Shown: positions 17,300-44,790, counted from the stretch's first letter. The stretch is 64,000 bases of DNA from Candidatus Limnocylindrales bacterium (GCA_035688805.1 DASSMQ010000006.1:15012-79011), one strand, 5' to 3'. The notes: generated from the letters alone by a model not told the origin. Numbers and translations: made by a program.

Positions 17300-18166
17300 C
17301 TAGGTGGTCCACAGCGACGGCCGCCAGCGGTCCGTCGCGGCAGTCCGCTTCTGGGCATCGATCGTCGCCAATACGAGCAGGCTCTCGAGACCAGTCGCCA
17401 CGCACGCTGCCTCGGCAGCGTCCTTGGCCGATCCCTCGACGAACTCGCCGGTCGTCCGGTTCGCGTAGACCGCGCAGACGACCCCGGCCCGTGCGCCGGC
17501 GAGCGATGCGAACACCAGCAGTGCCGATGCCTCCATCTCGAAGTTCATGACGCGCTGGCGCGCCATGGTCTCCGCGAGGTCAGGGTAGCGGATGGGCAAC
17601 TGGGGGATCGGGCGTCCCTGCGCACCGAAGAACCCCGGCGCCGTCGCCGTCACCCCGACGTGATACCGGTAGCCGAGCCGCTCCGCCGCCTCGATGAGGG
17701 CCATCGTCGCCTCGAGATCGGCGACCGCGGGATACCCATCGTGGACGTACCAGCTCGTCGTCGTCTCGAGCCGCACCGCTCCGGTCGTGATGACCAGGTC
17801 ACCCAGGGCCATCTCCGGCTGGAGCGCGCCGCACGAGCCGACCCGGATGAAGGTCGGACGATGCGTGATCGCCAGGATCTCGGCCACGGCGATCTCGACG
17901 TTGTCCGTGCCGATGCCGGTCGACACGACCGACACCCGCTGTCCTCGATACGTGCCGGTCGCCGATGCGAACTCCCGGTGTCGGTGCTCGAGCTCGACGG
18001 AATCGAAGCGCGAGGCGATCCGTGTCGTTCGGTCCTGGTCCCCGGGGAGGAGGATGTACTCGGCCAGGTCTCCCGGTCCGAGTCCGATGTGGTACTGCCG
18101 TTCCCCGTCGGGGATCGCTATGCGGCGATCTCGCGGGCTTTCGACGCGGGTATCCGCGTTCGGCAA
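17300..18166 (-). CDS. nucleoside phosphorylase, PNP/UDP family 1 (uridine phosphorylase-like)
   Basis: 288 aa with STGIG, FIRVGSCGAL and NFEMEASAL motifs typical of Udp/DeoD-type phosphorylases. Confidence 0.8.
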   Translation of the reverse strand: MPNADTRVESPRDRRIAIPDGERQYHIGLGPGDLAEYILLPGDQDRTTRIASRFDSVELEHRHREFASATGTYRGQRVSVVSTGIGTDNVEIAVAEILAITHRPTFIRVGSCGALQPEMALGDLVITTGAVRLETTTSWYVHDGYPAVADLEATMALIEAAERLGYRYHVGVTATAPGFFGAQGRPIPQLPIRYPDLAETMARQRVMNFEMEASALLVFASLAGARAGVVCAVYANRTTGEFVEGSAKDAAEAACVATGLESLLVLATIDAQKRTAATDRWRPSLWTT

Positions 18167-18293: not shown

Positions 18294-21200
18294 TCAGCCC
18301 CCGTTCACCGTCCGGCCAACGCCCTCCGGCGGTCGTGCCCGCCCGCCGATCGACGCCAGGCGGGTCGCGACGCGGGCCGCCACCAGCCGTCGCGCATGGC
18401 GCCGCCGCAGGGTGGCGGCGACCACCGACAAGGCACCGACCCCGGTCAACCCGAGCAGGCTCGCGCCGGCACCCGGCAGGAGTCCCGGGTCCGCCCCGAA
18501 CCCCGCCACCTGCATCTCGGGCGCGGAGCGCTCGCCCGTCGTGCCGATGGCGGCGGTGCCAGCCTCCGGTGAGCTGGCGGGCGTCGGGTTTCCCAGCCCG
18601 TCCAGGCCGCTGCCGAGGACGATCGTCGAGGGGTCGTCGACCACGACGACCGTCTGGCCGTCCTCGTCGCGACGCACTCGGCCGACGACGTTGATGGCGT
18701 CGCGTGGCTCGATCAGCCCGAGCCAGCCGGCGGCCTCCCCGGTCAGGACGATCGACCCGACGGACGTGCCGTCGTCCAGTCGGAAGCCGGTGGGCCGCAG
18801 CTCCACCACCAACCCGCCGACCCGCACGGTCGCGCCGAGAAGCGCCTCCAGGTCGGCCAGGTCGGCATCGGCCACGGTCCGACCGACACCCGGGGCTCCC
18901 GATGACAGGACCGGACCCTCGGTCGAGGTCACGGCGACGCCGCTGTCACCCCCGGAGCGACGATCGCTCGCCCGCGGCACGCTCGTCACGTGCACGTCCG
19001 CCGAGCCCCTCGGCAGCACCGCTGGCCGTCGGTCCGTCGCACTCGGATAGGCCGGGCGGACGATCCCGACGATCTCGGCGGTCCCGCCGGCGCCGAGCAC
19101 CGTGCTGGGAATCGCGGCACCGGGCTGGCCGATCACGACGAGGGACTGCGCGCCGCTGATCACCTCCGCGCGCCAGCGGTCGCCGAGCTTGTGGACCGCA
19201 TCGACCCGGCCCGCGATCGATACGAGGCGCCACGTATGCGCGGCCCCGAGGGCGCCGGCCACGCGGAGTGGCGCCGGGATCGATGCCGAGCCGAGGCGGT
19301 CGAGGCTGGTCGCCCGCAGGCGCGGAGCGCCGTAGGCCGATCCGATCCGGCCGACCGCCCGGATCCTCGACCCGACCCCCGGGGCCGACGCGGTCTTGGG
19401 CACGAGCACTTCGATCGCGCCACTCGGGTCCTGGACGACGATCCGTCGGCCCGTCGAATCGAGCAAGGTGGCCGGCGCGGTCACGACCGCCTCGATCGCG
19501 ACATCGCGATCGGTGACCCGCCGGGCGGCCGCGATGGATAGCACGGTCGGAGTGCCGCCGGTCGTGGTCGATCCATTCGGCTTGGGCTTCGGGGTCGGCG
19601 TCGGGGCGTGACTCGGTGACGGGGTCGGCGTCGGCGCAGGAACCGTGAGCACGACGTCTGCAGGATCCCGGGCCCAGATCCGATAGCCGTCCGGCTGGTC
19701 CTTCTTCGACGCGCGCTGGCCCGCGATGCCGGTGACCCGGTACCGGGCCCATAGGTCGAAGGCCGAGGTCCCCAGCCCGCTCGAAGCGTCGGTCATCACC
19801 CGGACTCGCGTGCCGTCCGAGGTCTCGATCGTGACCGTGATGTCGTTGCTCGTCGACTTCACCGGCCGGACGACCACGAGACCGTCGAAGCGGACGAGCT
19901 TCGCCTCGGACGACTCGTCCGGACCACTCGGGGGAACGACCGCCGGCTCCGGCAGGACGCCAACGCCCTCGACGTGCAGGTCGCTGGCGAGGGGTCGGAT
20001 CTCGGTCTGCCCGTACGGATCGGCGAGCGGACCACGGACCCACACGACCTGGCCACGACTGGGTGCCGGCAGCTCGGCGGGGAGTCGCACGATCAGCGCG
20101 CCGGTCGCATCCTGGACCGGGAACAAGGCAGGCGTCCCCACCCGGCCGGGCTCGGCCGTGACGACGCCACGGATCGCGACGCTCGTGCCGACCGGCATCG
20201 TCCGGGCCGTCCCGATGGCCATCGCTTCGGCGGGCGGCGCCGACGTGGCGGTCGGGGTCGGGATCGGGGTCGGGGTTACGGTCGGGGTCGCGGTCATGTC
20301 GGCAGTCGGCGTGGGCTCGGGCGTCGCGGTAGGGTCCTCGGTCGGCGTGGTAGATGGGGCCGAGGTCGGGGAAGGCGCAGGCGTCGACGTCGGCACGGGG
20401 GTCGAGGTCGGCAGGGCGAGCTGCAGGTCGCCCGGCGCCGTGACATAGAGCCGATAGCCGCCGGTGCCGGTCCCGGAGCTGTCGCGCTGCCCGAGCGGGC
20501 CGACCGCGGTGACCATGGTCCCTTGCGAAACAGGCCTGCCCGCAACGGCCGTCGGCGTGACGACCACCCGGACGGGTCCGGAACCGTCGTCGATCGAGAA
20601 GGCCGTCCCGTCGGCGAGGGCCTCGTCGGCGCCCGTGACCGAACCCTGCGCCTCGAGCCGAGTACCTTCGAGCAGCTCGGTTGCGCCGCCGGTCGTCGTG
20701 CCGAGGGCTGGCGGGACACCAGGGTTGCCATCAACCATCACCGCACCCTGGGTGATGCGCAGCGTTCGCTGGGCATAGCGAGAATCGACCTCGCCGTGCA
20801 CGTGGATGGCAGTACCCGCAGCGATCGGGTCGACCACCACCGCGTCAAGGTAGAGGGCGATCCCACCGGTCGCGTCCTGGACGAAGGCAGTCCGACCGGC
20901 CTCGAGCGCGCCGAGGTCCGTGGTCAGGACGCCTGAGATCGTGACGACGGATCCATCGGGCAAGGCGCGGGCGGCAACGATGGACGTCGTGGGCGGAGGC
21001 GTCGGCGTCGGTGCCGGGGAGACGGTCGGGACTGGCGTGGGCTCCGGCGTGGGCGGCATGGTCGGCTCCGGCGTGGGCGGCACGGTCGGCTCCGGCGTTG
21101 GCGCCGGGGTGGGCGGCACGGTCGGCTCCGGCGTGGGCGGCACGGTCGGCTCCGGCGTCGGCGCCGGGCTGGGCGGCGCGGTCGGCTCGGGCATCGGCGC

Positions 21201-21965
21201 CGGGGTGGGCTCGATCGTCGGCACCGGCGACGCAGTCGGACCGGGGGTGGCCGTCGCCGTCGGACTGGGCGACAGCGTCGGCACGGCGGTCGGCGTGGCC
21301 GTCGGCGTCGGGCTCGGGCTCGCGACGGGGGCAGGGATCGGCGGTGACGCTACATCCTGCGGTCCCGGCGTCGCCGACACGAACCAATCAGCGCCATTGG
21401 CGTTCGTGTCGATGGCGTTGCCGAGGACTCCACCAGGGCGCCGTTCGAGGCTGGATCCCGCGGGTGGCGCGGCAGCCGCCGTCCCCTCGACGAAGGCGTT
21501 GGTCGCATCACCCCAGCCGATCGCGTCGATCACCGAACCACCGACCACGCGCAGCGCGACCGACCCTCCGGTCGCGGCGAAACCGCCCGAGTACGTCGCA
21601 TCGCCGAACCCGACGTAGGAGCCAGCGCCATTGACGATGAGCGTCCGCTGTCCGGGACCAAGGATCGTCGACGTCGACCAGGTCGCCTTGCGCGTGACCG
21701 TCGAGCCGGTCGACGTCGCGTACACGACCTCGAGCCCGACCAGATCGGCAGGACCCGTACCCTGATTGGCGATCTCGACGAACTCGTCCGATGCGCTCGA
21801 GCCGCCGGTCTGGATCTCCGACACGACGAGCGTGGATACCGGCCACGCGGCCGACGCCGCGAGTGCGACGTCCCCCAGCCGTGCGCTGTGTGTGGGTCCG
21901 CTCGACAGGCAGACGGCGACGACGAGGGCGAGCGCGGTGGTCCCCGCGCGCCGGGCGCGTTGCAT
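18294..21965 (-). CDS. large secreted/anchored protein: signal peptide, lamin-tail domain (LTD), Pro/Thr linkers, repeated OB-fold-like modules, C-terminal TM helix
   Basis: 1223 aa. N-terminal signal peptide, then an LTD-like VVSEIQTGGSSASDEFVEIANQG. At least four internally similar ~90-aa modules (e.g. VTISGVLTTD...FVQDATGGIALY and VAIRGVVTAE...PVQDATGALIVRL). C-terminal hydrophobic helix followed by RRRHARR. Confidence 0.8.
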   Translation of the reverse strand: MQRARRAGTTALALVVAVCLSSGPTHSARLGDVALAASAAWPVSTLVVSEIQTGGSSASDEFVEIANQGTGPADLVGLEVVYATSTGSTVTRKATWSTSTILGPGQRTLIVNGAGSYVGFGDATYSGGFAATGGSVALRVVGGSVIDAIGWGDATNAFVEGTAAAAPPAGSSLERRPGGVLGNAIDTNANGADWFVSATPGPQDVASPPIPAPVASPSPTPTATPTAVPTLSPSPTATATPGPTASPVPTIEPTPAPMPEPTAPPSPAPTPEPTVPPTPEPTVPPTPAPTPEPTVPPTPEPTMPPTPEPTPVPTVSPAPTPTPPPTTSIVAARALPDGSVVTISGVLTTDLGALEAGRTAFVQDATGGIALYLDAVVVDPIAAGTAIHVHGEVDSRYAQRTLRITQGAVMVDGNPGVPPALGTTTGGATELLEGTRLEAQGSVTGADEALADGTAFSIDDGSGPVRVVVTPTAVAGRPVSQGTMVTAVGPLGQRDSSGTGTGGYRLYVTAPGDLQLALPTSTPVPTSTPAPSPTSAPSTTPTEDPTATPEPTPTADMTATPTVTPTPIPTPTATSAPPAEAMAIGTARTMPVGTSVAIRGVVTAEPGRVGTPALFPVQDATGALIVRLPAELPAPSRGQVVWVRGPLADPYGQTEIRPLASDLHVEGVGVLPEPAVVPPSGPDESSEAKLVRFDGLVVVRPVKSTSNDITVTIETSDGTRVRVMTDASSGLGTSAFDLWARYRVTGIAGQRASKKDQPDGYRIWARDPADVVLTVPAPTPTPSPSHAPTPTPKPKPNGSTTTGGTPTVLSIAAARRVTDRDVAIEAVVTAPATLLDSTGRRIVVQDPSGAIEVLVPKTASAPGVGSRIRAVGRIGSAYGAPRLRATSLDRLGSASIPAPLRVAGALGAAHTWRLVSIAGRVDAVHKLGDRWRAEVISGAQSLVVIGQPGAAIPSTVLGAGGTAEIVGIVRPAYPSATDRRPAVLPRGSADVHVTSVPRASDRRSGGDSGVAVTSTEGPVLSSGAPGVGRTVADADLADLEALLGATVRVGGLVVELRPTGFRLDDGTSVGSIVLTGEAAGWLGLIEPRDAINVVGRVRRDEDGQTVVVVDDPSTIVLGSGLDGLGNPTPASSPEAGTAAIGTTGERSAPEMQVAGFGADPGLLPGAGASLLGLTGVGALSVVAATLRRRHARRLVAARVATRLASIGGRARPPEGVGRTVNGG
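21041..21200 (-). repeat. in-frame tandem repeat (60-nt period with 24-nt sub-repeat) encoding the PEPTVPPT linker
   Basis: 21061-21120 and 21121-21180 are 57/60 identical. Encodes TPEPTVPPTPEPTVPPTPAP. Confidence 0.85.
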
Positions 21966-22143
21966 GGGTGTCCTCCCGGCGGGGACGAGCGGACGGCGGC
22001 GCGACGGGATTGATAGCAGGGGCCGCCCATCTCGGCCTCGCCGCCAGGTTCACTCGCGCTGCACGCAGGCTGCACGCACGCTTCGCTCCGGATCTCCTCG
22101 TATCGCATGGAGCCGGATGGCGCCTGTGCGCCGTTCGACTACG

Positions 22144-22926
22144 ATGACCGGCAACCCGCACGTCCATGCAGGACCGTCACCAGGAGACGCCGTGGCCCGC
22201 GCCAAGAGGACCGCCAGGGCAGAAGCCCGTCGCCGCTACCGAGCGGACCAGCCAGCATCGGTCGAGACGCCGCTCGCCGACGACCCGCCCGACCCTCGCC
22301 CGCGGGACCGGACCGTCGCCCGAGCGACGCCTGCGCCGACCGGTCGGCGCAGCTTCGCCGGGGCCTTCCGTGATGCGTTCCGACCGCTTGACCTGCGCGG
22401 CGACCTGCAGGCGCTGCCGCGGATCGCGCTACGAACGAACGCCCTCTGGATCCCGGTGGCGTTGACCCTGCTCAGCCTTGTGCTGTTCCTTGTCATCCGG
22501 CCGGAGGGCCGCACGGACATCCTGGCTGTCGTGACGATCTTCCTGTTCCAGTACTTCATCGTGACGCCGGCCATCGGGGGCGTGTTCATCGCCGGGTTCC
22601 TGGCTCCCCGAGCGAGCTGGCTGCTGGGCGGGATCGTCGGCCTGGTGTCGGCCGCCTGCTACTCGTTCCTGGTGATCGGCGGGTTCATGAAGGTCGCGCC
22701 GACAGCGACCAGTCAGAACCTGGTCCAGGAGGTGACGCTGGCGGCCTTCGTGATGTCGCCGCTCGTCGGGGCGGTCTTCGCCTCGGCGGCAGCGTGGTAT
22801 CGCCGGTTCCTCCAGCTGTCCAACCCGAACCGGGGACGCTCGCGACCGTCGGCGTCGGAGGCGGGACGCCGACCGGACGGTCGAACCCGGGCTGGGGGGA
22901 ACCAGAAGGCGAGCGCGCGCCGCTAG
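22144..22926 (+). CDS. hypothetical membrane protein with an Arg-rich N-terminus
   Basis: ATG at 22144 inside the longer ORF 21766-22926. Four to five TM helices. No recognised family. Confidence 0.5.
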   Translation: MTGNPHVHAGPSPGDAVARAKRTARAEARRRYRADQPASVETPLADDPPDPRPRDRTVARATPAPTGRRSFAGAFRDAFRPLDLRGDLQALPRIALRTNALWIPVALTLLSLVLFLVIRPEGRTDILAVVTIFLFQYFIVTPAIGGVFIAGFLAPRASWLLGGIVGLVSAACYSFLVIGGFMKVAPTATSQNLVQEVTLAAFVMSPLVGAVFASAAAWYRRFLQLSNPNRGRSRPSASEAGRRPDGRTRAGGNQKASARR

Positions 22927-22968: not shown

Positions 22969-25900
22969 CTAGCCGAGCCGACGCATGCCGGCATGCCCGA
23001 GCTGTCGGACCCCACCAGGTTGCTCCGGCCCGCCGACCGTGGCGACCACCTCGGGGAGTGGCTTGATGTCGCGAGCGACGAGGTTGACGACCTTGCCTTC
23101 GCGCTGGAGCTCACCATCGACCAGCAGCAGGGCGTGCCGGCGGACCACGCCGCGTAACCGTTCCCAGACGTTCGGCCAGAGGGTCACATTCACCATCCCG
23201 GTCTCGTCCTCGAGCGCCAGGAAGACCGTGCCCTTGGCGGTCATCGGATGCTGCCGGGTGACGACTAGTCCTCCCACCCGGACCCGGCCCGGCCGCCGAT
23301 CGGCCAGTGACGCATTCGGCACCGCCCCGAGTCGATCGAGCGCGGTCCGGAAGAGCCCGACCACCTGCCGGCGGGCATCGACCCCCAGTACCGCATAGGC
23401 GTCACCGACCCGCTCGGACTCGGTGATCGCCGGCAGGTCGGGCGCATCGGTCGCCGGGAGTCGGAGATCCAGCGGCCGGCCCGCTGCCGCGTGCCGCTTG
23501 CCGGCGGCCCGCCCGAGGGCACGGACCGTCCGGCCATCCATCCGACCGCGTGACGCCCCGGCCACCTCGCGCAACTGCCAGAGCAGCTCCCGCCGTGGCC
23601 GGTCCAACGAGTCCATCGCGCCGCTGCGGATGAGTCGCTCGAGCACCTCCTCGGGCAGGCCCGTCCGTTCGACCACGTCGACCAGGTTCCGATACGGGCC
23701 GCGGGCCCGCTCGGCATCGAGCGCTGCCTGGTGCTGCTCCCCGATGCCCTTCACCAGGCCGAGCCCGAGCCGGACCGCCCAGCCGGCGGTCACCGCCGGC
23801 GTCCAGCGCTCCCGCGACGACGCGGAGGGAACGATGCACGCGGAGGAGACGACCGGGTCGGGCTGTGCGTCTGGGCCGATCCACTCGGTCGTCGTCGCGT
23901 AGCACGACGCGTTGACGTCCACGGGCAGCACCGCTACCCCGTGGCGCTTCGTGTCGTTGACCAGGACCTCGACCGGATAGAAGCCCATCGGCTGGGCATT
24001 GATCAGCCCGACCAGGAACTGGGCGGGGTAGAACAGCTTGAGGAAGGCCGACTCGTAGGCGGTCCGGGCGAAGGCCGCCGCGTGCGACTTGGCGAACCCG
24101 AAACTGGCGAACGCGGCGACCTGGCGAAACAGCTCCTCGGCGGTCTCGAGCTCGAGCCCGGGCTGGCGCAGCGCCCCGTCGACGAACCGGTGATGGAGCT
24201 TCTCCATCTCGCGCGATGAACGCCAGGTCCCCATCGCTCGCCGGAAGCCATCCGATTCGGCCGGGCTGAACCCGGCCACCTCGATGGCGATGCGCATGAC
24301 CTGCTCCTGGTAGAGGATCACTCCGAGCGTGTCCTTCAGCACGGGCTCCAGGCTGGGGTGCAGGTAGACGACCGGCTCGAGGCCCTGCTTGCGGCGCAGG
24401 TACGGGTGGACGGCGTTGCCCTGGATCGGCCCGGGTCGGATGATCGCCACCTCGACCACCAGGTCATCGAGCCTGCCCGGCCGCGACTTGGGGAGCGTCT
24501 GCATCTGTGCCCGGCTCTCGACCTGGAAGACGCCCACCGTGTCGGCCGCCTGGAGCATCGCGAAGACCTCGGGCACGTCCTCGGGCAGGCGGTCGAGATC
24601 GAGGCAGACCGCACAGTCATGCTCGATGAGCTGCAGGGTCTCGTCCATCGCGGCGAGCATCCCGAGACCGAGCAGGTCGAGCTTGATGAGCTTGAGCGTC
24701 TCGACGTCGCGCTTGTCGAACTGGACGACCACCCGGTCGGGCATCGTGGCCCGCTCGAGCGGGGCGAGGTCGATGAGGGGGGCGGCCGTGACGAGCATGC
24801 CGCCGCTATGGATGCTGAGGTGACGCGGGAACCCGTCGATCCGGGCGCAGAACTCGAGCCAGCGCTCCCAGTGGGAGAGGCCGACCGTCGAGCCGCCACG
24901 GGCCTGCGGCGGTGGCTCGGGCACGATGCGGGCGACCGAGCTCGCATTCGCTGGGGTCGGCGGGGGATCCCACATGATCGGCCTGCCGAGACGATCGGTC
25001 TTCCGTGGTGGCGGCAGGGTCATGCCGCTCTCCGGATCGACCGGGACGGGTCCCTGGCCCAGCGGGGGTGTGCCATAGCCCGTCCCCCGCCCGGCTCGCA
25101 GCCAGGCCACGCTCGCCGGCGTGTCGCCCGGTCCGCCCTCGTCGTCGGACGGCCCGCGGCGGATCGTCGTGACCGGTGCGAGCGGGTCCTCGCGGAACGC
25201 GGCATCACCACGCTCCGTGGCATTGCCCTCCTCGGTGGTCGATTCCCGGAGCCAGGCGAACGGACGCGGCGCGTCCGGGTCCACCGGGGTCCGCGGCTGC
25301 TTCCACGGTGGCACCTTCCCGATCAGGGGCAGCCGCTTGTTCAACTGGCCCATGCCATCGACCAGCCCGTGCGCCTCCGCCTGTTCGGCCGCGCCGGCCT
25401 CCGGTGGCAGGCCCTCCCCGGATCGTCGGAAGAACTCGGCGAACCCGCCGTCGGCCTCGAGGTCGCGCCGGACCATGACCGAGTCGTACGTCTCGAGCGC
25501 CTTCGCGACCCGATCTACCAGGGGCCGCGGGAAGCCGAGCGCATAGCCCACCTCGCGCACCGCCGAACGCGCCCGGTAGGTGACAAGGTTGCAGACCATC
25601 CCCGTGTGCTCCGGCCCGTAGCGTCGGTAGATGTACTGGATGACCTCCTCGCGCCGAGCCGAGCTGAAGTCGATGTCGACGTCCGGGTACGTCGTCCGAC
25701 CCGGATTGATGAACCGCTCGAACAGGAGGTCGTGGGCGATCGGCTCGACGCGGCTGATCCCGAGGGTGTACGACACGATCGAACTGGTCGCGCTCCCCCG
25801 ACCCTGGGCCGGGATGCCCTGCTCCCTCGCGAAGCGCATCAGGTCCCAGCAGATGAGGAAGAACTCGGCAAGGCCGGCTCGCTCGATGACGTCGAGTTCA

Positions 25901-27072
25901 TGGGCGAGCCGCTTGACCACCGCCGAGGTCAACGGGTGATAGCGCCGCCGTGCGCCGGTCCAGCACAGCTCGGAGAGATGAGAGAACGGTGTCTCACCCT
26001 CAGGGACCGGGAAGCCCGGGAACCGGTACTGCTCGAACCCGAGATCGACCGAGCACGATGCCGCGATCTCGACCGAGTTGGCGATCCCCTCGCGCCAGGC
26101 ACGGGCAGCACTCGACTCGAGCGAGTCGCCGAGCGTTGCCAGCGCCTCGCCCGATTTCAGGAAGGACTCGCCGTCCGGCCGACGCAGATCGGCCAGCGTG
26201 TCGAGCGTCCGGCCGTGTCGGATGGCGGTCAGCACGTCGTGGAACTCGCGGTCGTCGGCCGTCGCGTAATGGACGTCGTTGGTGACCACGACGGGCAGGC
26301 CGAGCTCGATCGCCAGCGCGGCCGATTCGGCGACCAGCCAGTCGTCGTCGGGCAGGAGATGGTGCGACAGCTCGATGAAGAACCCGCTCGTCGACGGGCC
26401 ATCGCCGCGGCCGAAGAGCGTCGCATAGCGCTCGGCGACAGCGCGCGCGCCGGCCCGATCGCCGACCCGCAGGCGTCGCGCGATCTCCCCCTCGCGACAA
26501 GCCGACAGCGCGACCAGGCCATCGTGATCAGCCTCGAGCAGGTCGTGCGTGATGCGCGGCATCGCCTTGGTCCCGGCCAGGTTGGCGTGCGACACCAGGC
26601 GACTCAGGCTGCGCCAGCCGGCAGGGGTCCGGGCGAGGAGCACGAGGTGTGGGCCGCGGGCCCGGTCCCCGACCCCGCGCACATCTTCCTTGACCAGGTC
26701 GCGGTGACCGGGCAGACGGGCGCGATCGGGTCGCGGCCGCACGGGCCGGCCGTCGGTGATCGTCGGCTCGACGGCCGGAGACTCGCCCTGCCGGCGGCGT
26801 GGCCGGCGGCGAGACGGGACCACCACCCGGCCGGGATCGGGCACGGCCGTATCGATCAGGTCGATCTCGGTCCCGACGACGCCAGGGAGGCCAGCCTCCT
26901 CGGCGGCACTCATGAACCGGACGGCGCCGTACAGCCCGTTCCGATCCGTCGCAGCGAGGGCGGTCAGCCCCAGGGCGACGGCCCGCTCGACCAGGTCGTC
27001 CGGCGGCGAGGCGCCATCGAGGAACGAGAAGTTGGTGTGGGCGTGGAGTTCGGCGTATGGGATGGTCGCCAC
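22969..27072 (-). CDS. dnaE2: error-prone DNA polymerase III alpha-subunit paralog (DnaE2/ImuC type), unusually long at 1367 aa
   Basis: N-terminal PHP domain (YAELHAHTNFSFLDGASPPDDLV), a Pol III alpha core (PDVDIDF, GFPRHLSIHSGGMLV) and an OB fold at the C-terminus. LexA-type box and SD upstream. GTG start. Confidence 0.9.
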   Translation of the reverse strand: MATIPYAELHAHTNFSFLDGASPPDDLVERAVALGLTALAATDRNGLYGAVRFMSAAEEAGLPGVVGTEIDLIDTAVPDPGRVVVPSRRRPRRRQGESPAVEPTITDGRPVRPRPDRARLPGHRDLVKEDVRGVGDRARGPHLVLLARTPAGWRSLSRLVSHANLAGTKAMPRITHDLLEADHDGLVALSACREGEIARRLRVGDRAGARAVAERYATLFGRGDGPSTSGFFIELSHHLLPDDDWLVAESAALAIELGLPVVVTNDVHYATADDREFHDVLTAIRHGRTLDTLADLRRPDGESFLKSGEALATLGDSLESSAARAWREGIANSVEIAASCSVDLGFEQYRFPGFPVPEGETPFSHLSELCWTGARRRYHPLTSAVVKRLAHELDVIERAGLAEFFLICWDLMRFAREQGIPAQGRGSATSSIVSYTLGISRVEPIAHDLLFERFINPGRTTYPDVDIDFSSARREEVIQYIYRRYGPEHTGMVCNLVTYRARSAVREVGYALGFPRPLVDRVAKALETYDSVMVRRDLEADGGFAEFFRRSGEGLPPEAGAAEQAEAHGLVDGMGQLNKRLPLIGKVPPWKQPRTPVDPDAPRPFAWLRESTTEEGNATERGDAAFREDPLAPVTTIRRGPSDDEGGPGDTPASVAWLRAGRGTGYGTPPLGQGPVPVDPESGMTLPPPRKTDRLGRPIMWDPPPTPANASSVARIVPEPPPQARGGSTVGLSHWERWLEFCARIDGFPRHLSIHSGGMLVTAAPLIDLAPLERATMPDRVVVQFDKRDVETLKLIKLDLLGLGMLAAMDETLQLIEHDCAVCLDLDRLPEDVPEVFAMLQAADTVGVFQVESRAQMQTLPKSRPGRLDDLVVEVAIIRPGPIQGNAVHPYLRRKQGLEPVVYLHPSLEPVLKDTLGVILYQEQVMRIAIEVAGFSPAESDGFRRAMGTWRSSREMEKLHHRFVDGALRQPGLELETAEELFRQVAAFASFGFAKSHAAAFARTAYESAFLKLFYPAQFLVGLINAQPMGFYPVEVLVNDTKRHGVAVLPVDVNASCYATTTEWIGPDAQPDPVVSSACIVPSASSRERWTPAVTAGWAVRLGLGLVKGIGEQHQAALDAERARGPYRNLVDVVERTGLPEEVLERLIRSGAMDSLDRPRRELLWQLREVAGASRGRMDGRTVRALGRAAGKRHAAAGRPLDLRLPATDAPDLPAITESERVGDAYAVLGVDARRQVVGLFRTALDRLGAVPNASLADRRPGRVRVGGLVVTRQHPMTAKGTVFLALEDETGMVNVTLWPNVWERLRGVVRRHALLLVDGELQREGKVVNLVARDIKPLPEVVATVGGPEQPGGVRQLGHAGMRRLG

Positions 27073-27186: not shown

Positions 27187-28725
27187 ATGGGCTTACCTGA
27201 CCGGGTGCGATCGACCCGTCACCGTCGCCATGCCGCCTGGTCTCGCCTCGTCCTCACCCTGACCGCCGCGGTCACGCTCTTGGCCGGGATCGCGGGCCCG
27301 ATCCCCGCTGTCCGGGCCGCGGACATCCGACCGCGGATCACCGGGATCGCGCCCCTGACCCACGAGGTCTACGGGTATCTCCCCTACTGGCGCCTGGATG
27401 CCGGCACGGTCGACCGGCTGCACTACGACCTCGTGTCGACCATCGCGTTCTTCGGCCTCGGGATCCTCGGGACGGGGGCGATCGACACGTCCTGGATCGG
27501 CTATCGGGCGTACATCGGCGACGACGCGGCGGCGGTCACCAATGCCGCCCACGACCACGGGGTTCGGGTCGTTCCCACGTTCCAGCTGTTCGATTCGGCG
27601 ACCGGCGCGCCCAAGATGACGGCGTTCCTCGGCAGTCGGTCGGCGCAGGACCGGTTCATCGGCGAGGCGCTCGACCTCATGGCCGCACGGAGCGCCGACG
27701 GTGCCGGGCTCGACTTCGAACCGGTCGGCGCCCTGGCCGCGCGCGCCTCGGAGTACGTCGCCTTCGTGGCCCGGTTCCGGGGCGCGATGAAGGCCCGCTT
27801 CCCGGGAGCCACGCTGGTGACCGCGACCTCGGCTGGGGCGACCCAGGAGCTCGTCCAGGGTGTCGCCCCATACGTCGATCATCAGATGGTGATGACCTAC
27901 AACTACCGCTCCTCCGGCTCGACGATCGCCGGCGCGGTTGCCCCGCTCGATCACGCGACGAGGAACGTCAAGAAGCACATCACCCGGATGCTGGGCTGGG
28001 TGCCGGCACGCTCCTTGCTGCTCGGCGAGCCCTATTACGGATACGACTGGCCGGTCACCAGCGCCATCCCGAACGCGACGGTCCAGTCGGACAAGTCGAC
28101 CTATGGCCCCGTCCGGAGCGTCACCTACGCCAGTGCCCGCGATTTCCTGGCCGCGCACCCGAGTGTCGTCCGGCGCTACGACTCTCTCGAGGGGAGCGCC
28201 TTCTACTGGTACTACGACAGCACGAAGCGGACCTACCGCGAAGCCTATTTCGACGATGAGCGGAGCCTCGCCGCGAAGGACGACTACGCGATCGCCACCG
28301 GCCTTGGCGGGATCGGCATCTGGACGCTCGACAACGACCGCGGCTACCGGCAGCTGTGGGACGTCCTCCGTTCGAAGTTCTACGCCCCGGTCCTGAGCAT
28401 GTCGGTCCGGGCGTCGGTCAGCGACCTGACCCGGGTATCCGGGGTCGTGTCCGTGGTCGTCCATGCCGGAGCCACGAATACGGGGACCGTGCCGCTGACC
28501 GGATCGCTGCGCTGGGCGATCCGCGACCCAGGTGGCCGAGTCGTGGCCAGCGGTCATTGGCCGACCACCGTCGTCTACCCTGGCCGGAGCACGAGTCACG
28601 CCGTCCGTGCCGCCCTCGGGCTGGCCACCTCCCTGCCAGCCGGCACCTACCACCTTCGGGTGCGGTTCGTGACGTCGACGAAGGCCTACGGGCCGCCGGA
28701 CGTGGCCTTCCGCCAGCCGTACTGA
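27187..28725 (+). CDS. secreted glycoside hydrolase family 18 protein (chitinase / peptidoglycan-hydrolase-like)
   Basis: Signal peptide, catalytic motif DGAGLDFEP (DGxxxDxE), then MTYNY and GIGIWTLDND. Has a ~110-aa C-terminal beta-rich domain. Confidence 0.85.
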   Translation: MGLPDRVRSTRHRRHAAWSRLVLTLTAAVTLLAGIAGPIPAVRAADIRPRITGIAPLTHEVYGYLPYWRLDAGTVDRLHYDLVSTIAFFGLGILGTGAIDTSWIGYRAYIGDDAAAVTNAAHDHGVRVVPTFQLFDSATGAPKMTAFLGSRSAQDRFIGEALDLMAARSADGAGLDFEPVGALAARASEYVAFVARFRGAMKARFPGATLVTATSAGATQELVQGVAPYVDHQMVMTYNYRSSGSTIAGAVAPLDHATRNVKKHITRMLGWVPARSLLLGEPYYGYDWPVTSAIPNATVQSDKSTYGPVRSVTYASARDFLAAHPSVVRRYDSLEGSAFYWYYDSTKRTYREAYFDDERSLAAKDDYAIATGLGGIGIWTLDNDRGYRQLWDVLRSKFYAPVLSMSVRASVSDLTRVSGVVSVVVHAGATNTGTVPLTGSLRWAIRDPGGRVVASGHWPTTVVYPGRSTSHAVRAALGLATSLPAGTYHLRVRFVTSTKAYGPPDVAFRQPY

Positions 28726-30028: not shown

Positions 30029-30277
30029 TCAGTCGTACAGACGTTCGATATGCCAGGTGCCGGCGATCCGGTCGAGATAGACGAGCGCGAGCCAGCGTTC
30101 GCCCACGACCTTCGCGTACTCGCGGGCGATCGGATCGCGCCACCACGACTCATCGACCCGCCAGCGGTTGCACACCTCGACCGCCTCGCGACGCCCGTTC
30201 CAGCGGATGGCGATGAGCCGTCCATCGCCATCGAGCTCGACGTCGATGCGCGGATGCTCGCGCAGGAGGCGGGTCAT
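30029..30277 (-). CDS. 82-aa conserved-looking hypothetical protein, translationally coupled to imuB
   Basis: ATG at 30277 overlaps the imuB TGA (ATGA). Sequence MTRLLREHPRIDVELDGDGRLIAIRWNGRREAVEVCNRWRVDESWWRDPIAREYAKVVGERWLALVYLDRIAGTWHIERLYD, Trp/Arg-rich and beta-strand-like. Confidence 0.65.
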   Translation of the reverse strand: MTRLLREHPRIDVELDGDGRLIAIRWNGRREAVEVCNRWRVDESWWRDPIAREYAKVVGERWLALVYLDRIAGTWHIERLYD

Positions 30278-31548
30278 GCCGGCCATCCGTCGCGCCCGTC
30301 GTCGGCGAGCCCGACTGAGCGCCACGCCCAGCGTGCTTCCGCCAGCGGCGCCTCCGGGTCGGTGATGGCGACCCGGCGGATGCGATCCTCCCCGTAGGTC
30401 AGCGCCAGCCTCGCCAGCTGCCACCCGAGTCGGGCCGTCCGGGCGGCCTGGGGCACGAACAACGGCAGTTGTTGGCCCGCCGCCGGGGTCGTGCCGCGCA
30501 GTTCCAGGTCGATCCGCTGGACCGCTGCCGGCGGCGGCTGGCGCTCGAGGCGCGCGAACAGCAGACGCTCGACGGCTTCGGGGTCCGCGGTGGGTTCCGG
30601 GAAGCGCTGCTCGACCTCCATCCGCGGCGACGTACCGACCGGCGCGAACGCAAGGTCCAGTTCCAGCGTCAGCACTGCCCGATCCGCGGCGAGCCCTCGA
30701 CCGGTGAGCTGGGCGGCCAGCGCCGCCACTAGGCGATGGAGGACGAACCGGAGCGGCTCGAGCTCCTCGACCGGGGGTTCGATGGGCAGGGCGAGGGCCA
30801 GGCGCTCGGTCGCGTGGCGAGCCCCGAACGGCTCGGTCTCCTCGCCTCGAGCACGAGCATGGAGCCGCGCGCCCTCCTCGCCGAACCGGGCGATCAGCGC
30901 GGATCGCGGGAGGACCGCCACCGCGCCGATCCGACGCAGTCCGAAGCGGGTCAGGCGTGCCCGGACATCGGGGTCGGTGGTGAGCAGCCCGGACGGACGG
31001 TCGGCCAGGAACGCCGCCTCACCCCCGGGTGGGACGATGATCGGACCGTCCGGGGTGGCGGCCAGCGCCGCGACCGAGGCGGCGAACCGGGTGCCGGCGA
31101 TCCCGGCGCGCGGTGACGGCTCCCCGGGGAGGGCGCCTCGCAGCGCCGCACCGGCCCGCTCGATCAGTCGGGGCTCGGCCCCCCACAGCGGCTCGAGCCC
31201 ATCGATCCCGACCTCGAAGAACCCGAATGAGGCCGCCGATGGGTCGCTGGTCCCGGCCAGGCTCGGGCTGGATCGCCCGAGCGCCTCGAACACGGCCTCG
31301 GCAGCTCCCCGATCCGCATCGGGATCGGGGTCGATGAAGGTCGCCTCAGGGACGAGTCGGTGGGCGCTCCCGAGCGGCATCCCGCGTCGGACGCCGAGCG
31401 CCCGAGCTGTCGGATCGGCGTCGAGGACCGGACCCGGATCCCAGGGTCGCCCGCCCAGCACGAGCGGGCCGGTCGGGAAGGGCTCGGAGCGTCGAGCCCG
31501 GGCCAGGTGGAGCGGCAGGTGCGGCACGAACAGGTGCAGACGTCGCAT
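30274..31548 (-). CDS. imuB: ImuB, Y-family-polymerase-like mutasome subunit
   Basis: Start at the ATG at 31548 (MRRLHLFVPHLPLHLARARR..., a typical ImuB/DinB-like N-terminus). The catalytic acidic residues are not evident. Gene order is imuA'-imuB. Confidence 0.85.
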   Translation of the reverse strand: MRRLHLFVPHLPLHLARARRSEPFPTGPLVLGGRPWDPGPVLDADPTARALGVRRGMPLGSAHRLVPEATFIDPDPDADRGAAEAVFEALGRSSPSLAGTSDPSAASFGFFEVGIDGLEPLWGAEPRLIERAGAALRGALPGEPSPRAGIAGTRFAASVAALAATPDGPIIVPPGGEAAFLADRPSGLLTTDPDVRARLTRFGLRRIGAVAVLPRSALIARFGEEGARLHARARGEETEPFGARHATERLALALPIEPPVEELEPLRFVLHRLVAALAAQLTGRGLAADRAVLTLELDLAFAPVGTSPRMEVEQRFPEPTADPEAVERLLFARLERQPPPAAVQRIDLELRGTTPAAGQQLPLFVPQAARTARLGWQLARLALTYGEDRIRRVAITDPEAPLAEARWAWRSVGLADDGRDGWPA

Positions 31549-32719
31549 GGTCGGTCTCGCGATCGGGGGCCTCATGAACGGGGGCGTGGACGGGAGGCGG
31601 CGGAGCGGCCGACAGCCGGAGGTCGACCGGATCGGCCCAGCGGGTGGGTTCCTTGCTTCCCGCGTACGAGCTTGCAGGCACGGCAAGTACCACGGGCGAG
31701 GACCGCGTACGGGCCTCATCTCCGAGCGATCCCTTGCCTTCGGGGCAAGGAACGGCGGCGATGGCCCGGCTATCGGTCGACGGCACCTCATCACTTGCGA
31801 GGACCGCAAGTTCCACGACCATCTCGCCTGGCCGTGCAGCGGTACTTGCCGTGGAGGCAAGCCCTTGCGCCGCGGGCACGTCGAGCGCGTCGAACAGGAG
31901 GGCGTCGTCGGCGAGGCACGCATCGCGCTCACCGCCCTCCGCGTAGAGGATCCGCAGGATGGCTCGGCGTCCCGGCGGACCGTGGCGGTTGTGGGCGACG
32001 AGCGCCTCGGTCCGCTGCCCGACGACGTCCCGGCCGAGACGGACCCAGGACCGCCGAGCGAGCTCCAGCCGGATGCCGGTCGATTGGTCGACCGCGGTCG
32101 TGAGGCCACCGCCCGACCCGGGCGCATCGAGGATCAGGAGCAGCGTCTCCGCCCGCCGGGCGAGAGCGGCGAGTCGATGGAGGCGATCGGCGATCTTCGC
32201 CGGCGTGTCGGTCCTGGCCAGACGGCCACCGGGCAGGTCGATGACGAGCAGGTCGACCGAGCGGCCGGCCAGCAGGCTGCCGGCGATGCCCAGGCCCTCG
32301 TCCAGGCTGGCCGGGGTGATGACCACGAGCCATTCGAGCCGGATGCCGCGGCTGACGGCTTCGACCGGGTCGAAGCTGCGCGACAGGTCCAGCCACGCCA
32401 CGACCGAGCCCTGGGCCTGGGCCTCCGCGGCGACCCGCAGGCTGAGGGTCGTCCGCCCGCTCGAGCCTTCCCCCCGGATCGCGACGCTGGCCGAGGTCGG
32501 CAACCCGCCCGGTCCGAGGATCGCGTCGAGGGCGGCGAAGCCGGTGTGGATGATCCGGTCGGCGGGCCGTGGGTCGGCGGAGGGTGACGGTCCCGGCATC
32601 TCTGTGGGGACCGGTGCCGGAGCCAGGGCCAGGGCGCCGACCACGCTCGGAGCTGCAGCACCCCAGCGGGCCCGGAGGCCCGCGACGGCGGCATCCACAT
32701 CACCCCGACCGGTCGACAT
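31346..32719 (-). CDS. imuA: ImuA' (RecA/SulA-fold mutasome subunit) with a ~190-aa low-complexity run-on tail
   Basis: RecA-like core at about aa 60-285 (FAALDAILGPGGLPTSASVAIRGEGSSGRTTL ... LLVIDLPG). Codon bias collapses near 31865, yet no in-frame stop occurs until 31346, 200 nt inside imuB. Confidence 0.7.
   Translation of the reverse strand: MSTGRGDVDAAVAGLRARWGAAAPSVVGALALAPAPVPTEMPGPSPSADPRPADRIIHTGFAALDAILGPGGLPTSASVAIRGEGSSGRTTLSLRVAAEAQAQGSVVAWLDLSRSFDPVEAVSRGIRLEWLVVITPASLDEGLGIAGSLLAGRSVDLLVIDLPGGRLARTDTPAKIADRLHRLAALARRAETLLLILDAPGSGGGLTTAVDQSTGIRLELARRSWVRLGRDVVGQRTEALVAHNRHGPPGRRAILRILYAEGGERDACLADDALLFDALDVPAAQGLASTASTAARPGEMVVELAVLASDEVPSTDSRAIAAVPCPEGKGSLGDEARTRSSPVVLAVPASSYAGSKEPTRWADPVDLRLSAAPPPPVHAPVHEAPDRETDHATSAPVRAAPAAPPGPGSTLRALPDRPARAGRATLGSGSGPRRRSDSSGARRPTRDAARERPPTRP
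31651..31876 (-). repeat. array of CTTGC-N7-GCAAG hairpins (4 complete, 2 half-sites)
   Basis: Hairpins at 31671-31687, 31732-31750, 31793-31811 and 31845-31861, with stems of 5-7 bp and loops that all differ. Extra CTTGC copies at 31653 and 31865. Confidence 0.8.
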
Positions 32720-34637: not shown

Positions 34638-35528
34638 CTACGGGAGCGCGATCGCGACCAACCCGACGAACACGCCGGCGAGGCCGACCCACTGGATCGG
34701 CCGCAGGCGTTCGCCGAGCAGGGCCACGGCGACGATGATCGTGACCGTCGGCCCGAACGATGAGGCCAGGCCGACGAGCCACGTCTCGGCGTGTTCGAGC
34801 CCGTAGGCGAACGAGGCGAGGCCCACGACATCGAGCAGCCCCGCGAGCGCGATCGCGCCGAACGTACGAGCGTGCGCGCCACCCGTTCCTTCAAGGGCCG
34901 GACCGGCGTGGCCGCGCAGGACCGTCGACGCCACCACCAGCACGACGGTCGACAGCAGCGCGTTGGCGGTGCGCGACACGAGCACGACCTCCAGCCATGG
35001 CGCGCGGTCGATGACGATGTCGCTGCCGATACTCATCGACGCGAACAGGACGAGGGCGACGACCGCGAAGACCACCCCCGGACTCGCAAACCGTGTCCCA
35101 CGCAACCCTTGGTCGAATGCCACACCCGTCATCACGACGCCGATCGTCGCCACGGCAGCGCCCACCCCCTGCAGCGGGGTCAGCGTCTCGCCCCGGACCA
35201 CGACCGCCAGCACGACCGTCAGGCCCCCATAAGCCGCGACCATCCCGCTGACGACGGCGATCGGCCCGATCCGAAGGCCGGTGAAATAGGACAGGTAGGC
35301 GCCGGCGCCGGCCAGGCCGACCAGGGCACCGCCGACGAGGACGAAGGGGTCCCCTGAGATCGTGGTCCCGGTCGCGATCGCCGCGATCCACACGAAGACC
35401 GCCCCGACGACCTGCATCCCAGCGGTCACCACCAGGCTGCCGACCCGTCGGCTGGCCAGCGCGGAGAAGAGATCGAGCGTGCCCCACGACAGGGCCGCAC
35501 CGAGCCCGGTGAGCAGGCCAAGCGGCAT
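34638..35528 (-). CDS. EamA/DMT-superfamily transporter
   Basis: 296 aa with 10 predicted TM helices in two EamA-like halves. Confidence 0.75.
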   Translation of the reverse strand: MPLGLLTGLGAALSWGTLDLFSALASRRVGSLVVTAGMQVVGAVFVWIAAIATGTTISGDPFVLVGGALVGLAGAGAYLSYFTGLRIGPIAVVSGMVAAYGGLTVVLAVVVRGETLTPLQGVGAAVATIGVVMTGVAFDQGLRGTRFASPGVVFAVVALVLFASMSIGSDIVIDRAPWLEVVLVSRTANALLSTVVLVVASTVLRGHAGPALEGTGGAHARTFGAIALAGLLDVVGLASFAYGLEHAETWLVGLASSFGPTVTIIVAVALLGERLRPIQWVGLAGVFVGLVAIALP

Positions 35529-35646
35529 CGGCGGAGCCTACGGTCCAACGGTCGAGCGGCCACCGTGGTCCCGTCGGCCGGGACGCGCCGTCGCCGGCCG
35601 CGGCGGCCGGTCGGGCGGGAAGCCCGTGCTACACTCGCTCGCCCGT

Positions 35647-35722
35647 GGGGATGTAGCTCAGCTGGGAGAGCACCGCGTTCGCATCGCGGGGGTCAGGGGT
35701 TCGAGTCCCCTCATCTCCACCA
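35647..35722 (+). tRNA. tRNA-Ala (anticodon CGC), CCA encoded
   Basis: Cloverleaf folded by hand: acceptor GGGGATG/CATCTCC with G3:U70, anticodon loop TTCGCAT, T-loop GGTTCGAGTCC. Confidence 0.95.
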
Positions 35723-35742
35723 TCCCGATCGGAGGGGTCCCC

Positions 35743-36105
35743 ACGTCCGTCGTCGCGGCGATCCTGGTCGCGCTCGTCGCGCTGATCCACGCCTACATCC
35801 TCGTGCTCGAGATGTTCCTGTGGCGCACGCCTCGCGGTCGGCAGGCATTCGGGACGACCGCCGAGCAGGCCGAGACGATGGCGACGCTCGCGGCCAACCA
35901 GGGGCTGTACAACGGGTTCCTCGCCGCCGGTCTGGCCCTGAGCCTCGTCCTGCCCGAGCCGAGCGCCCTGGTCCTGAAGGTCTTCCTGCTGGCGTGCGTG
36001 GTGATCGCGGGTCTCTATGGCGCCGCGACCGTGTCGCGCCGGATCGTCCTCGTGCAGGCCTTGCCGGCCGCGCTGGCGTTGGGGGCCGTGCTGCTAGCAC
36101 GCTGA
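35743..36105 (+). CDS. DUF1304-like small membrane protein (start codon uncertain)
   Basis: IHAYILVLEMFLWRTPRGRQAFG is typical of the family. No canonical start codon lies between the tRNA and the first TM helix, so the 5' limit is approximate. Confidence 0.55.
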   Translation, partial: TSVVAAILVALVALIHAYILVLEMFLWRTPRGRQAFGTTAEQAETMATLAANQGLYNGFLAAGLALSLVLPEPSALVLKVFLLACVVIAGLYGAATVSRRIVLVQALPAALALGAVLLAR

Positions 36106-40268: not shown

Positions 40269-40341
40269 GGGGCTATAGCTCAGCTGGAAGAGCACCTGCA
40301 TGGCATGCAGGGGGTCCGGGGTTCGAATCCCCGTAGCTCCA
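40269..40341 (+). tRNA. tRNA-Ala (anticodon GGC), CCA not encoded
   Basis: Acceptor GGGGCTA/TAGCTCC with G3:U70, anticodon loop ATGGCAT, T-loop GGTTCGAATCC. Confidence 0.95.
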
Positions 40342-43941: not shown

Positions 43942-44178
43942 GTGCATTCCTATTACGCCCTTCTCGCCCTTGATCTCGCGAACGATCGCGTGCAGGCGGC
44001 CGAGCACGAGCGGCTGGCCTCGCTGGCCCGCTCCGGTCGTCCGGCTCGACCCTCGATCGTGCGACGCGGCCTGGCGCATGGCACGGCTGCGATCAGCCGC
44101 ACCGCCGCGGCTGCGACCCGTCGACTCGACGATTGCGTCGCGGACGATCTCGGTCGGAGCCTGGCCCTAGCGGACTAG
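43942..44178 (+). CDS. 78-aa hypothetical protein
   Basis: The GTG follows GGAGG by 6 nt. Sequence VHSYYALLALDLANDRVQAAEHERLASLAR ... RRLDDCVADDLGRSLALAD. Confidence 0.5.
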   Translation: MHSYYALLALDLANDRVQAAEHERLASLARSGRPARPSIVRRGLAHGTAAISRTAAAATRRLDDCVADDLGRSLALAD

Positions 44179-44204
44179 CCTCTCCGCCGAACCGACGAAC
44201 GACC

Positions 44205-44238
44205 GAGCGCCTGCCCTTCCGGCAGGCGCTCTTCGATT
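44205..44238 (+). terminator. intrinsic terminator
   Basis: Perfect 11-bp stem GAGCGCCTGCC-CTTCC-GGCAGGCGCTC, followed by TTCGATT. Confidence 0.65.
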
Positions 44239-44270
44239 CCCGGTGCCGCGACACGCTAGGCTGGTCGACC

Positions 44271-44745: not shown

Positions 44746-44790
44746 GACGTCTCGCCGCGTCGGAAGTGCCCCCGACCTTGGCGAGACGTC
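44746..44790 (+). terminator. long composite hairpin between the propeller gene and comEA
   Basis: GACGTCTCGCC ... GGCGAGACGTC (11 bp) enclosing GTCGG/CCGAC. It covers the first possible comEA start (GTG at 44766). Confidence 0.35.

Follow-up and report, generated by a model that had tools for sequence, protein, structure and literature searches.

ExeM, NucH and Xds are secreted and cell-associated nucleases that carry a lamin tail domain (LTD) together with a tandem "YhcR-like" pair of OB folds. Deletion of the OB region abolishes the nuclease activity of ExeM and Xds, and the LTD is dispensable for this activity (PMC6085458, PMC6746945). Nucleases bearing LTDs are contained in the DNA-degradation loci of DNA-foraging bacteria (PMC8289736). 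With reference to Mans et al. 2004, the ExeM paper also mentions bacterial LTDs in secreted proteins with OB domains alone (PMC6085458), and the LTD plus OB architecture class therefore has precedent. This study concerns a gene of that class in a 64,000-nucleotide stretch of a Candidatus Limnocylindrales bacterium (GCA_035688805.1, DASSMQ010000006.1:15012-79011), referred to below as the window. The gene (18294-21965, minus strand; here the LTD-OB gene) encodes a protein of 1,223 amino acids (aa) whose LTD and tandem-OB units are, judged by profile and sequence comparison, homologous to the non-catalytic modules of the ExeM/NucH/Xds nucleases, and whose parts include no catalytic domain. The gene is conserved across the Limnocylindria class. 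The parts of the encoded protein, with the evidence for each in brackets, are as follows.

21849-21965, minus strand: signal-peptide-like N-terminus, residues 1-39, with MQRARRAG, a hydrophobic core and AxA-like sites (read from the sequence; pattern kept in the family consensus)
21354-21848, minus strand: LTD region, residues 40-204 (Pfam PF00932, conservation, charge)
20991-21353, minus strand: Pro/Thr linker 1, with DNA tandem repeats, residues 205-325 (composition scan, Tandem Repeats Finder)
20427-20990, minus strand: U1, acidic tandem OB pair in rigid packing, net charge about -9, residues 326-513
20223-20426, minus strand: Pro/Thr linker 2, residues 514-581 (composition scan)
19650-20222, minus strand: U2, tandem OB pair whose charge in the family is neutral to slightly basic, residues 582-772 (hhalign, weak NF033681 match)
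19542-19649, minus strand: Pro/Thr linker 3, residues 773-808 (composition scan)
18972-19541, minus strand: U3, tandem OB pair, strongly basic, residues 809-998 (AlphaFold2 pLDDT >90, Foldseek, hhalign, charge)
18864-18971, minus strand: U3-U4 spacer, disordered, without Pro/Thr richness, residues 999-1034 (AlphaFold2 pLDDT <50 at 1006-1027)
18612-18863, minus strand: U4, one OB fold of the classical type whose helix lies between strands 3 and 4; acidic, net charge about -9; residues 1035-1118 (PF01336, AlphaFold2)
18486-18611, minus strand: juxtamembrane segment, disordered and poorly conserved, residues 1119-1160 (AlphaFold2 pLDDT <50 at 1120-1134)
18408-18485, minus strand: single C-terminal transmembrane helix, residues 1161-1186 (Kyte-Doolittle)
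18297-18407, minus strand: Arg-rich predicted cytoplasmic tail of 37 aa (RRRHARRLVAARVATRLA...), residues 1187-1223, with RRRHARR following the helix (family consensus LRRRxxRRLLAARxAxRLA)

The open reading frame (ORF) is a genuine gene. It runs from an ATG start through 1223 codons to a stop codon, a ribosome-binding site (GGGAGG) lies 7 nt before the start, and the third-position GC content stays at 0.78-0.92 over the entire length in a window of 70.8% GC, values typical for coding sequence at this composition. Within the LTD region, the Pfam PF00932 match at residues 44-152 scored 42.2 to 46.6 bits (E 1e-10 to 5e-12) against a gathering score of 34.3. In the hydropathy profile the Kyte-Doolittle window exceeded 1.6 at residues 1165-1186, and the sole other such segment was a buried strand in U1. 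An earlier note on this DNA had read a signal peptide, an LTD and a C-terminal transmembrane helix followed by RRRHARR from the sequence, and all three elements of that reading were recovered here. Scans of the C-terminus with NCBIfam and Pfam models, including GlyGly-CTERM, gave no sorting-signal or other family match, and the 37-aa tail after the helix exceeds the length that GlyGly-CTERM-type sorting signals permit.

The relationship to the ExeM/NucH nucleases was detected for both types of module. A tblastn search of plasmids with the LTD as query retrieved, at 32.5% identity, an ExeM/NucH family extracellular endonuclease from plasmid pVV8 of Thermus thermophilus HB8 (WP_014677615.1; L082:1076-4513), which served as the comparator. 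This Thermus protein scores 553 bits with NF033681, the model extending over its OB pair and EEP (endonuclease/exonuclease/phosphatase) domain at residues 437-957; the LTD hidden Markov model (HMM) of the present family matches it at 60.7 bits, and the U1 HMM matches its OB region at 13 bits. For the OB units, an ExeM/NucH OB-pair profile was built from 29 homologues of the comparator's OB-pair region. In hhalign the U1 family aligned with this profile at 97.8% over 156 columns, collinear through both OB folds, and U2 and U3 aligned with it at 97.3% and 96.9%, respectively. The motifs GVVTA, F(Y/V)(L/V)QD, ExxEG, (L/V)DDxS and YRL are common to U1 and the ExeM/NucH OB pair. As controls, ten column-shuffled profiles reached at most 1.3%, and the PF01336 OB domain of DnaE from the same genome stayed below 1% for U1-U3; since both controls remain low, the likeness of the units to the ExeM/NucH pair is specific rather than a property of generic OB folds. 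U1 is about equally near to the ExeM/NucH pair (hhalign score 87) and to its own paralogue U3 (score 69). Where U1 and U2 gave weak matches in scans with NF033680 and NF033681, these fell on the OB part of the models. Combined, the LTD identity and the U1 alignment bear out the suggestion of the earlier note that LTD and OB-type modules of this kind correspond to the non-catalytic part of ExeM/NucH-type nucleases.

Self-comparison of the protein revealed three paralogous units of about 190 aa each. The first OB folds of U1, U2 and U3 matched one another in blastp with E-values of 1e-7 to 1e-10, and the family profiles aligned in hhalign at 99.6% over 186 columns (U1-U2), 98.8% (U2-U3) and 96.8% (U1-U3), placing the repeats, at the sequence level, well above chance. 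AlphaFold2 was run on U1 and on residues 806-1135 with an alignment of 57 orthologues. The U1 model consists of two five-stranded barrels in rigid packing (pLDDT 94, pTM 0.90); the model of residues 806-1135 (pLDDT 88 overall) contains the tandem pair U3, a disordered spacer at 1006-1027 and the single OB fold U4 with its classical helix, followed by a disordered segment before the membrane helix (1120-1134). The models thus yielded OB folds for U1, U3 and U4, in line with the OB-fold-like modules of the earlier note. With the models and profiles taken together, the protein contains seven OB folds, arranged as three tandem pairs (U1, U2 and U3) and one single OB (U4). The repeats described in the earlier note were therefore real, and its count of at least four modules of about 90 aa has to be revised to this arrangement; similarly, the Pro/Thr linkers that it placed between modules are present, and they part pairs rather than single modules, with a U3-U4 spacer that is not Pro/Thr-rich.

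The repeat motif (I/V)xGVVT...VQD(A/P)(T/S)G(A/G)I, which had been assigned to every module, was confined to the first OBs of the pairs (residues 343/361, 598/615 and 826/842), U4 and the second OBs having degenerate forms of it. It corresponds to the signature that RPA-type OB folds carry in strands beta2-beta3, with a marginal sequence match to the archaeal RPA 3dm3. A search of PDB sequences with the unit profile gave this type of match only (one marginal hit, RPA, E 0.03), and the same search with the whole protein gave only low-complexity Pro/Thr matches (e.g., circumsporozoite protein, internalin). Domain scans were similarly sparing. On the whole protein Pfam reported the LTD, BOF at residues 324-406 and tRNA_anti-codon (PF01336), with its best stretch at 1049-1109. 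For BOF (PF04076) the whole protein scored 34.7 bits and isolated U1a 22.4 bits against a cutoff of 25.8, and the YgiW-type models remained sub-threshold (NF033674, 30 bits vs. 35; TIGR00156, 27 bits vs. 108). Module by module, then, the scans proposed in the earlier note returned only weak PF01336 or BOF matches. Foldseek ranked multi-OB nucleic-acid binders highest (RPA, HIN-200, POT1, Teb1, RADX and CST), a match at the level of fold only because the TM-scores are low. The OB folds are of the RPA/aaRS/YgiW type, and a carbohydrate-binding fold for the repeats was ruled out by the AlphaFold2 models and the fold searches.

No EEP domain or other catalytic family was found in Pfam and NCBIfam scans of the whole protein and of each segment. 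All 1223 residues can be assigned to the signal peptide, the LTD, OB folds, disordered linkers, the transmembrane helix or the tail, and a hidden catalytic domain therefore has no room; this candidate was ruled out by the domain scans and the AlphaFold2 assignment. A nuclease domain was likewise found in none of 44 diverse relatives drawn from the profile search described below. These three lines of evidence uphold the earlier observation that the EEP domain is missing, and neither an overlooked catalytic domain nor an unrelated or carbohydrate-binding fold came to light. The scores with the nuclease models themselves are 22.5 bits for NF033680 (cutoff 1300), the match of about 22 bits lying in the LTD, and 11.5 bits for NF033681 (cutoff 300). 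The protein is therefore placed outside the ExeM/NucH family, since it has no catalytic domain and scores far under the cutoffs. Pfam scans also found no helix-hairpin-helix family, the DNA-binding motif of the ComEA type, in the protein.

A word-indexed search retrieved 1105 homologues. The best 120 of these are mostly 1100-1250 aa long, with a few shorter ones on short contigs, carry LTD and/or OB domains, and derive from metagenome-assembled genomes (MAGs) of Chloroflexota or Candidatus Limnocylindrales, where the annotation reads "lamin tail domain-containing protein" or "hypothetical". When 1.84 billion representatives were searched with a profile of the three units, 3046 proteins matched, 301 with E <1e-30, and the best 150 of the 3046 all belong to one family. 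The 44 diverse matches contained OB domains in 41 cases, an LTD in 22 and a subtilase in one. Within this set of distant unit-bearing proteins (alignment A4, P0167-P0268) the Peptidase_S8 (subtilase) domain was recognized at E 1e-58, and others of the set have four to six unit matches (e.g., P0194, 1511 aa), so the tandem-OB unit also serves in surface proteins of other architecture.

A scan of GTDB species genomes yielded 500 stretches encoding a relative. The best 80 come from Chloroflexota/Limnocylindria MAGs save for three contigs binned elsewhere. These three (L058, L061 and L036) were binned into MAGs of Binatia, Verrucomicrobiia and Anaerolineaceae; dnaE and the LTD-OB gene are both present in L058 and L061, whose DnaE is 74-80% identical to that of the window, and in L061 and L036 the gene is followed by the phosphorylase and gap genes, and all three are probably mis-binned Limnocylindria. 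Among the retrieved loci the gene occurs as one copy in a fixed position, with 39-57% identity of the protein compared to mostly 70-93% for neighbouring genes.

Across the family the lengths of the domains are fixed and those of the linkers vary (27-147 aa for linker 1, 43-74 aa for linker 2 and 13-46 aa for linker 3), with medians of 89, 55 and 27 aa from the tip to the membrane. The LTD is the most conserved part, with 72% mean identity. In U1 two conserved loops stand out, TTxLGALExGR and GPLGQRDSSGTGxxGYR; the canonical OB ligand loops, L12 in the first OB and L45 in the second, are nearly invariant in the family and show an abundance of Gly, Ser and Asp together with R and Y. Given fixed domain lengths, variable linkers, nearly invariant ligand loops and the conserved LTD, selection acts on the folded domains. 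The charge profile is conserved as well, at -9 for the LTD, -9 for U1, about +3 for U2, about +9 for U3 (pI about 11) and -9 for U4, so that only the acidic U4 lies between the basic pair U3 and the membrane. In linker 1, Tandem Repeats Finder detected DNA tandem repeats at 21022-21227 (periods 24/60, 85-95% matches) that encode the PTPEPTVPPTPEPT stretch. Because of these repeats and the range of 27-147 aa among orthologues, the data suggest that this linker expands and contracts by slippage.

Wherever the contigs extend far enough, the retrieved loci share the same order on one strand, namely dnaE, the LTD-OB gene, nucleoside phosphorylase, gap, pgk and eno; two loci are without a phosphorylase match. 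The elements directly flanking the gene are the following.

17300-18166, minus strand: uridine/purine nucleoside phosphorylase-like gene (PF01048), adjacent to the LTD-OB gene in 71/81 loci
21966-22143, no strand: divergent intergenic region of 178 bp between the LTD-OB gene and orfX (88-198 bp in 19 related loci; no Rfam family)
22144-22926, plus strand: orfX, 260 aa, about four predicted transmembrane helices (hydropathy), divergent from the LTD-OB gene

The downstream phosphorylase, which the earlier note had already pointed out, is similar to uridine phosphorylase or DeoD (213 bits with TIGR01718, which has a cutoff of 280), and a promoter-like site of this gene at 18245-18216 was the sole site in the promoter/terminator scan. 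The comEA (44766-45569) and comEC (45566-48331) genes mentioned in the same note are likewise present, about 23 kb away and on the opposite strand, in a leuS-comEA-comEC-holA block. Neither the phosphorylase nor comEA-comEC was retained as functional context: the phosphorylase is part of a housekeeping block that is syntenic across the whole class, dnaE-target-udp-gap-pgk-eno, the target being the LTD-OB gene, and comEA-comEC lie 23 kb off in their usual housekeeping cluster. The window's housekeeping genes comprise dnaK-grpE-hrcA, lepA, eno, pgk, gap, dnaE, leuS, comEA-comEC-holA, obg and rho. On the divergent side, orfX occupies the same position in about 78/81 loci and has 1589 homologues, all "hypothetical" (P0298 is 100% identical), and neither orfX nor its database homologues gave a Pfam or NCBIfam match. 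Its motifs are an Arg-rich N-terminal VARAKRTxRAEARRRYRA and a conserved C-terminal AAWYRRFLxLSNPNRGR. It is possible that orfX encodes a functional partner of the LTD-OB protein. An Rfam scan of the whole window found no element near the LTD-OB gene and no riboswitch or leader.

Several further observations concern the rest of the window. DnaE (22969-27072, minus strand) is long, with 1367 aa here and 1486 aa in L001. The match to its PHP domain extends over 230 residues and the one to its NTPase domain falls into two pieces, suggesting that it carries lineage-specific insertions. Divergent from dnaE lies a GH18 (chitinase-like) gene (27187-28725, plus strand), which tblastn placed beside dnaE in only 12/81 loci, in contrast to the other genes of the block. 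Between 28.7 and 32.8 kb there are several overlapping high-GC ORFs, and gene calls are ambiguous; one ORF there, of 617 aa (30274-32127, minus strand), weakly matches Y-family polymerases (35 bits for IMS, 22 bits for IMS_C) and is possibly ImuB- or DinB-like. Two tRNA genes (35647-35719 and 40269-40341, plus strand) are the only Rfam matches in the window, and because the first lies inside the longest-ORF call of a DUF1304 gene (35362-36105), that gene must start downstream of the tRNA. Just upstream of comEA, in the leuS-comEA-comEC-holA cluster, is a small ORF with a DUF346 repeat (44133-44684, plus strand).

Based on the combined evidence, we tentatively propose that the LTD-OB protein binds extracellular nucleic acid multivalently and holds DNA at the cell surface, a reading to which we give slightly less than an even chance. 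In its favour count the homology of the LTD and OB units to ExeM/NucH modules, the multi-OB nucleic-acid binders that lead the Foldseek ranking, the nearly invariant ligand loops and the basic charge of U3 throughout the family. It would be a type-I membrane protein with an N-terminal signal peptide, one C-terminal transmembrane helix and a basic cytoplasmic tail. Its ectodomain would resemble beads on a string, running from the membrane outward through acidic U4, basic U3, near-neutral U2 and acidic U1 to the LTD tip, with Pro/Thr linkers that join the parts and lengthen toward the tip. The ExeM/NucH-type OB pair has been triplicated and the EEP domain is absent; the pairs could engage DNA as is thought for ExeM and Xds, and three pairs on flexible linkers may provide multivalent, high-avidity capture on a presumably single-membrane Chloroflexota cell. 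Captured DNA might then be passed to separately encoded nucleases or uptake machinery, or be kept as matrix. That the protein is a dedicated non-catalytic extracellular DNA receptor of Limnocylindria, made from triplicated ExeM/NucH OB pairs and perhaps acting with orfX, is a more specific proposal that we regard as doubtful.

Several points weigh against DNA as the ligand. Extracytoplasmic OB folds such as those of YgiW/BOF, CcmE and toxin B subunits often bind ligands other than nucleic acids. The aromatic residue at the end of beta3, a Trp in the archaeal RPA 3dm3, reads as D or P in the alignment of the LTD-OB protein. Except for the metallo-beta-lactamase domain of ComEC, there is no nuclease gene in the window and none in the 23-kb flanks of the 80 loci, so that the separate nuclease partner raised by the earlier note was not encountered within this range; the neighbouring genes say nothing on function because the entire housekeeping block is syntenic. 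Direct DNA binding by the isolated OB region was itself inferred in the studies of ExeM and Xds (PMC6085458, PMC6746945). The acidity of the LTD, U1 and U4 was also listed among the points against and is judged neutral, since genuine ExeM/NucH OB pairs are equally acidic (median net charge -8); net charge was accordingly dropped as counter-evidence.

The alternative that deserves most attention, although we consider it unlikely, is a structural or tethering protein of the envelope, in which the OB pairs would serve as rigid spacers and the LTD would bind the wall, an S-layer or exopolysaccharide, making the protein a link between the membrane and an outer layer or an adhesin. Wide conservation in the class amid housekeeping genes fits a basic envelope component, the graded Pro/Thr linkers (medians of 89, 55 and 27 aa) are suited to spanning a wall, and conservation peaks at the LTD tip rather than at the OBs. 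Anionic lipids or wall polymers could be ligands of the basic U3, which lies next to the membrane, and the top Pfam/NCBIfam OB matches belong to the periplasmic YgiW/BOF family, which is without known DNA binding. For LTDs, a part in guiding proteins to membranes or to structures associated with them has additionally been put forward (Mans 2004, cited in PMC6085458); however, membrane localisation of Xds is independent of its LTD, which is dispensable for it (PMC6746945). The specific homology of the units to the nuclease-associated ExeM/NucH OB pair, rather than to generic OBs, also speaks against mere spacers, in which invariant canonical ligand loops would be unexpected.

A split nuclease or uptake system, with the LTD-OB protein as the non-catalytic subunit acting with a secreted nuclease, orfX or ComEA/ComEC, is improbable in our view. 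The divergent orfX in about 78/81 loci, with a short common promoter region, and the conserved basic cytoplasmic tail, which could touch a membrane partner, would accord with it, as would the presence of comEA and comEC in the same genome and the distant relative that fuses the units to a subtilase, indicating that the unit can target an enzyme. Against this, the adjacency of orfX is unspecific because the dnaE-to-eno block is syntenic throughout, no domain was recognised in orfX, no nuclease gene was encountered in the window or within 23 kb on either side of 80 loci, and comEA/comEC lie 23 kb off in their usual housekeeping cluster. A pseudogene-like remnant of an ExeM/NucH nuclease, left after loss of the EEP domain, would explain why LTD and OB pair are held in common and only the catalytic domain is gone. 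Yet hundreds of species, at 40-80% identity, have an intact ORF of constant architecture in which loops are invariant and domain lengths fixed, and the triplication of the OB pair and the added membrane anchor represent gain rather than decay; conservation excludes a decayed pseudogene for practical purposes, and we give this reading hardly any credence.

The significance of the LTD-OB protein lies in its parting the substrate-engaging modules of ExeM/NucH from catalysis and multiplying them. It is thus a natural test of the LTD and the tandem-OB pair by themselves, a question left by the ExeM and Xds studies. The Limnocylindria (formerly Ellin6529), a class of Chloroflexota without cultured members, have been met with mostly in metagenomes of soil and fresh water, and to our knowledge almost nothing is known of their cell surface. 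If DNA binding is true, the protein would be a candidate determinant of extracellular DNA retention or foraging in Limnocylindria, and a DNA receptor of this kind would be an undescribed capture route of single-membrane bacteria (for uptake, nutrition or matrix), distinct from ComEA and type IV pili. If the ligand is instead a wall polymer, the "nucleic-acid-binding" label that these OB modules bear in nuclease annotations would be redefined.

Compared with other known systems, the tandem and triple OB arrays find their best structural matches in RPA, POT1, Teb1, HIN-200/AIM2/IFI16, RADX and CST. In contrast to the LTD-OB protein, binders of the RPA/POT1 type are cytoplasmic or nuclear, and they show 8-20% identity, TM-scores of 0.2-0.45 and a different inter-domain geometry. 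The YgiW/YdeI BOF proteins (PF04076, NF033674) are extracytoplasmic as well and are the best Pfam/NCBIfam match of the first OB of U1; however, they are single-domain proteins of 110-130 aa, whereas the present protein has 1223 aa, seven OBs and a membrane anchor, and its units are nearer to the ExeM/NucH pair than to the BOF family. Under the favoured reading of DNA binding, ComEA, whose gene is in the same window, would be a functional analogue, as a non-catalytic, membrane-tethered binder of extracellular DNA. ComEA binds DNA via a helix-hairpin-helix and an SLBB domain, and the LTD-OB protein has no sequence or fold relationship to it. In the Firmicutes, YhcR and Streptococcus SsnA/SWAN combine surface-anchored OB folds with a nuclease domain and have LPXTG sortase anchors, unlike the protein described here. 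It is the YhcR of B. subtilis to which the OB region of ExeM has been likened (PMC6085458).

The closest relationship is to ExeM, NucH and Xds, with which the LTD-OB protein shares, in addition to the secreted and cell-associated character and module types given at the outset, the acidity of U1; a hydrophobic C-terminal anchor region is held in common with ExeM (PMC6085458). It differs from ExeM/NucH in having no EEP domain, three OB pairs plus an extra OB, long Pro/Thr linkers, and a plain transmembrane helix with a 37-aa tail that matches no recognised sorting-signal model; the second OB of ExeM/NucH has a long insertion that is absent from the second OB here. The Thermus protein WP_014677615.1 displays the modules in another order, namely an N-terminal Ig-like region, a single OB pair (about residues 429-650), the EEP domain and a C-terminal LTD (residues 976-1135), and it is catalytic; its LTD and OB pair are the regions homologous to the LTD and U units of the present protein. 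From these sequence comparisons, the LTD-OB protein is a non-catalytic derivative of the ExeM/NucH module set, representing a new arrangement of known modules.

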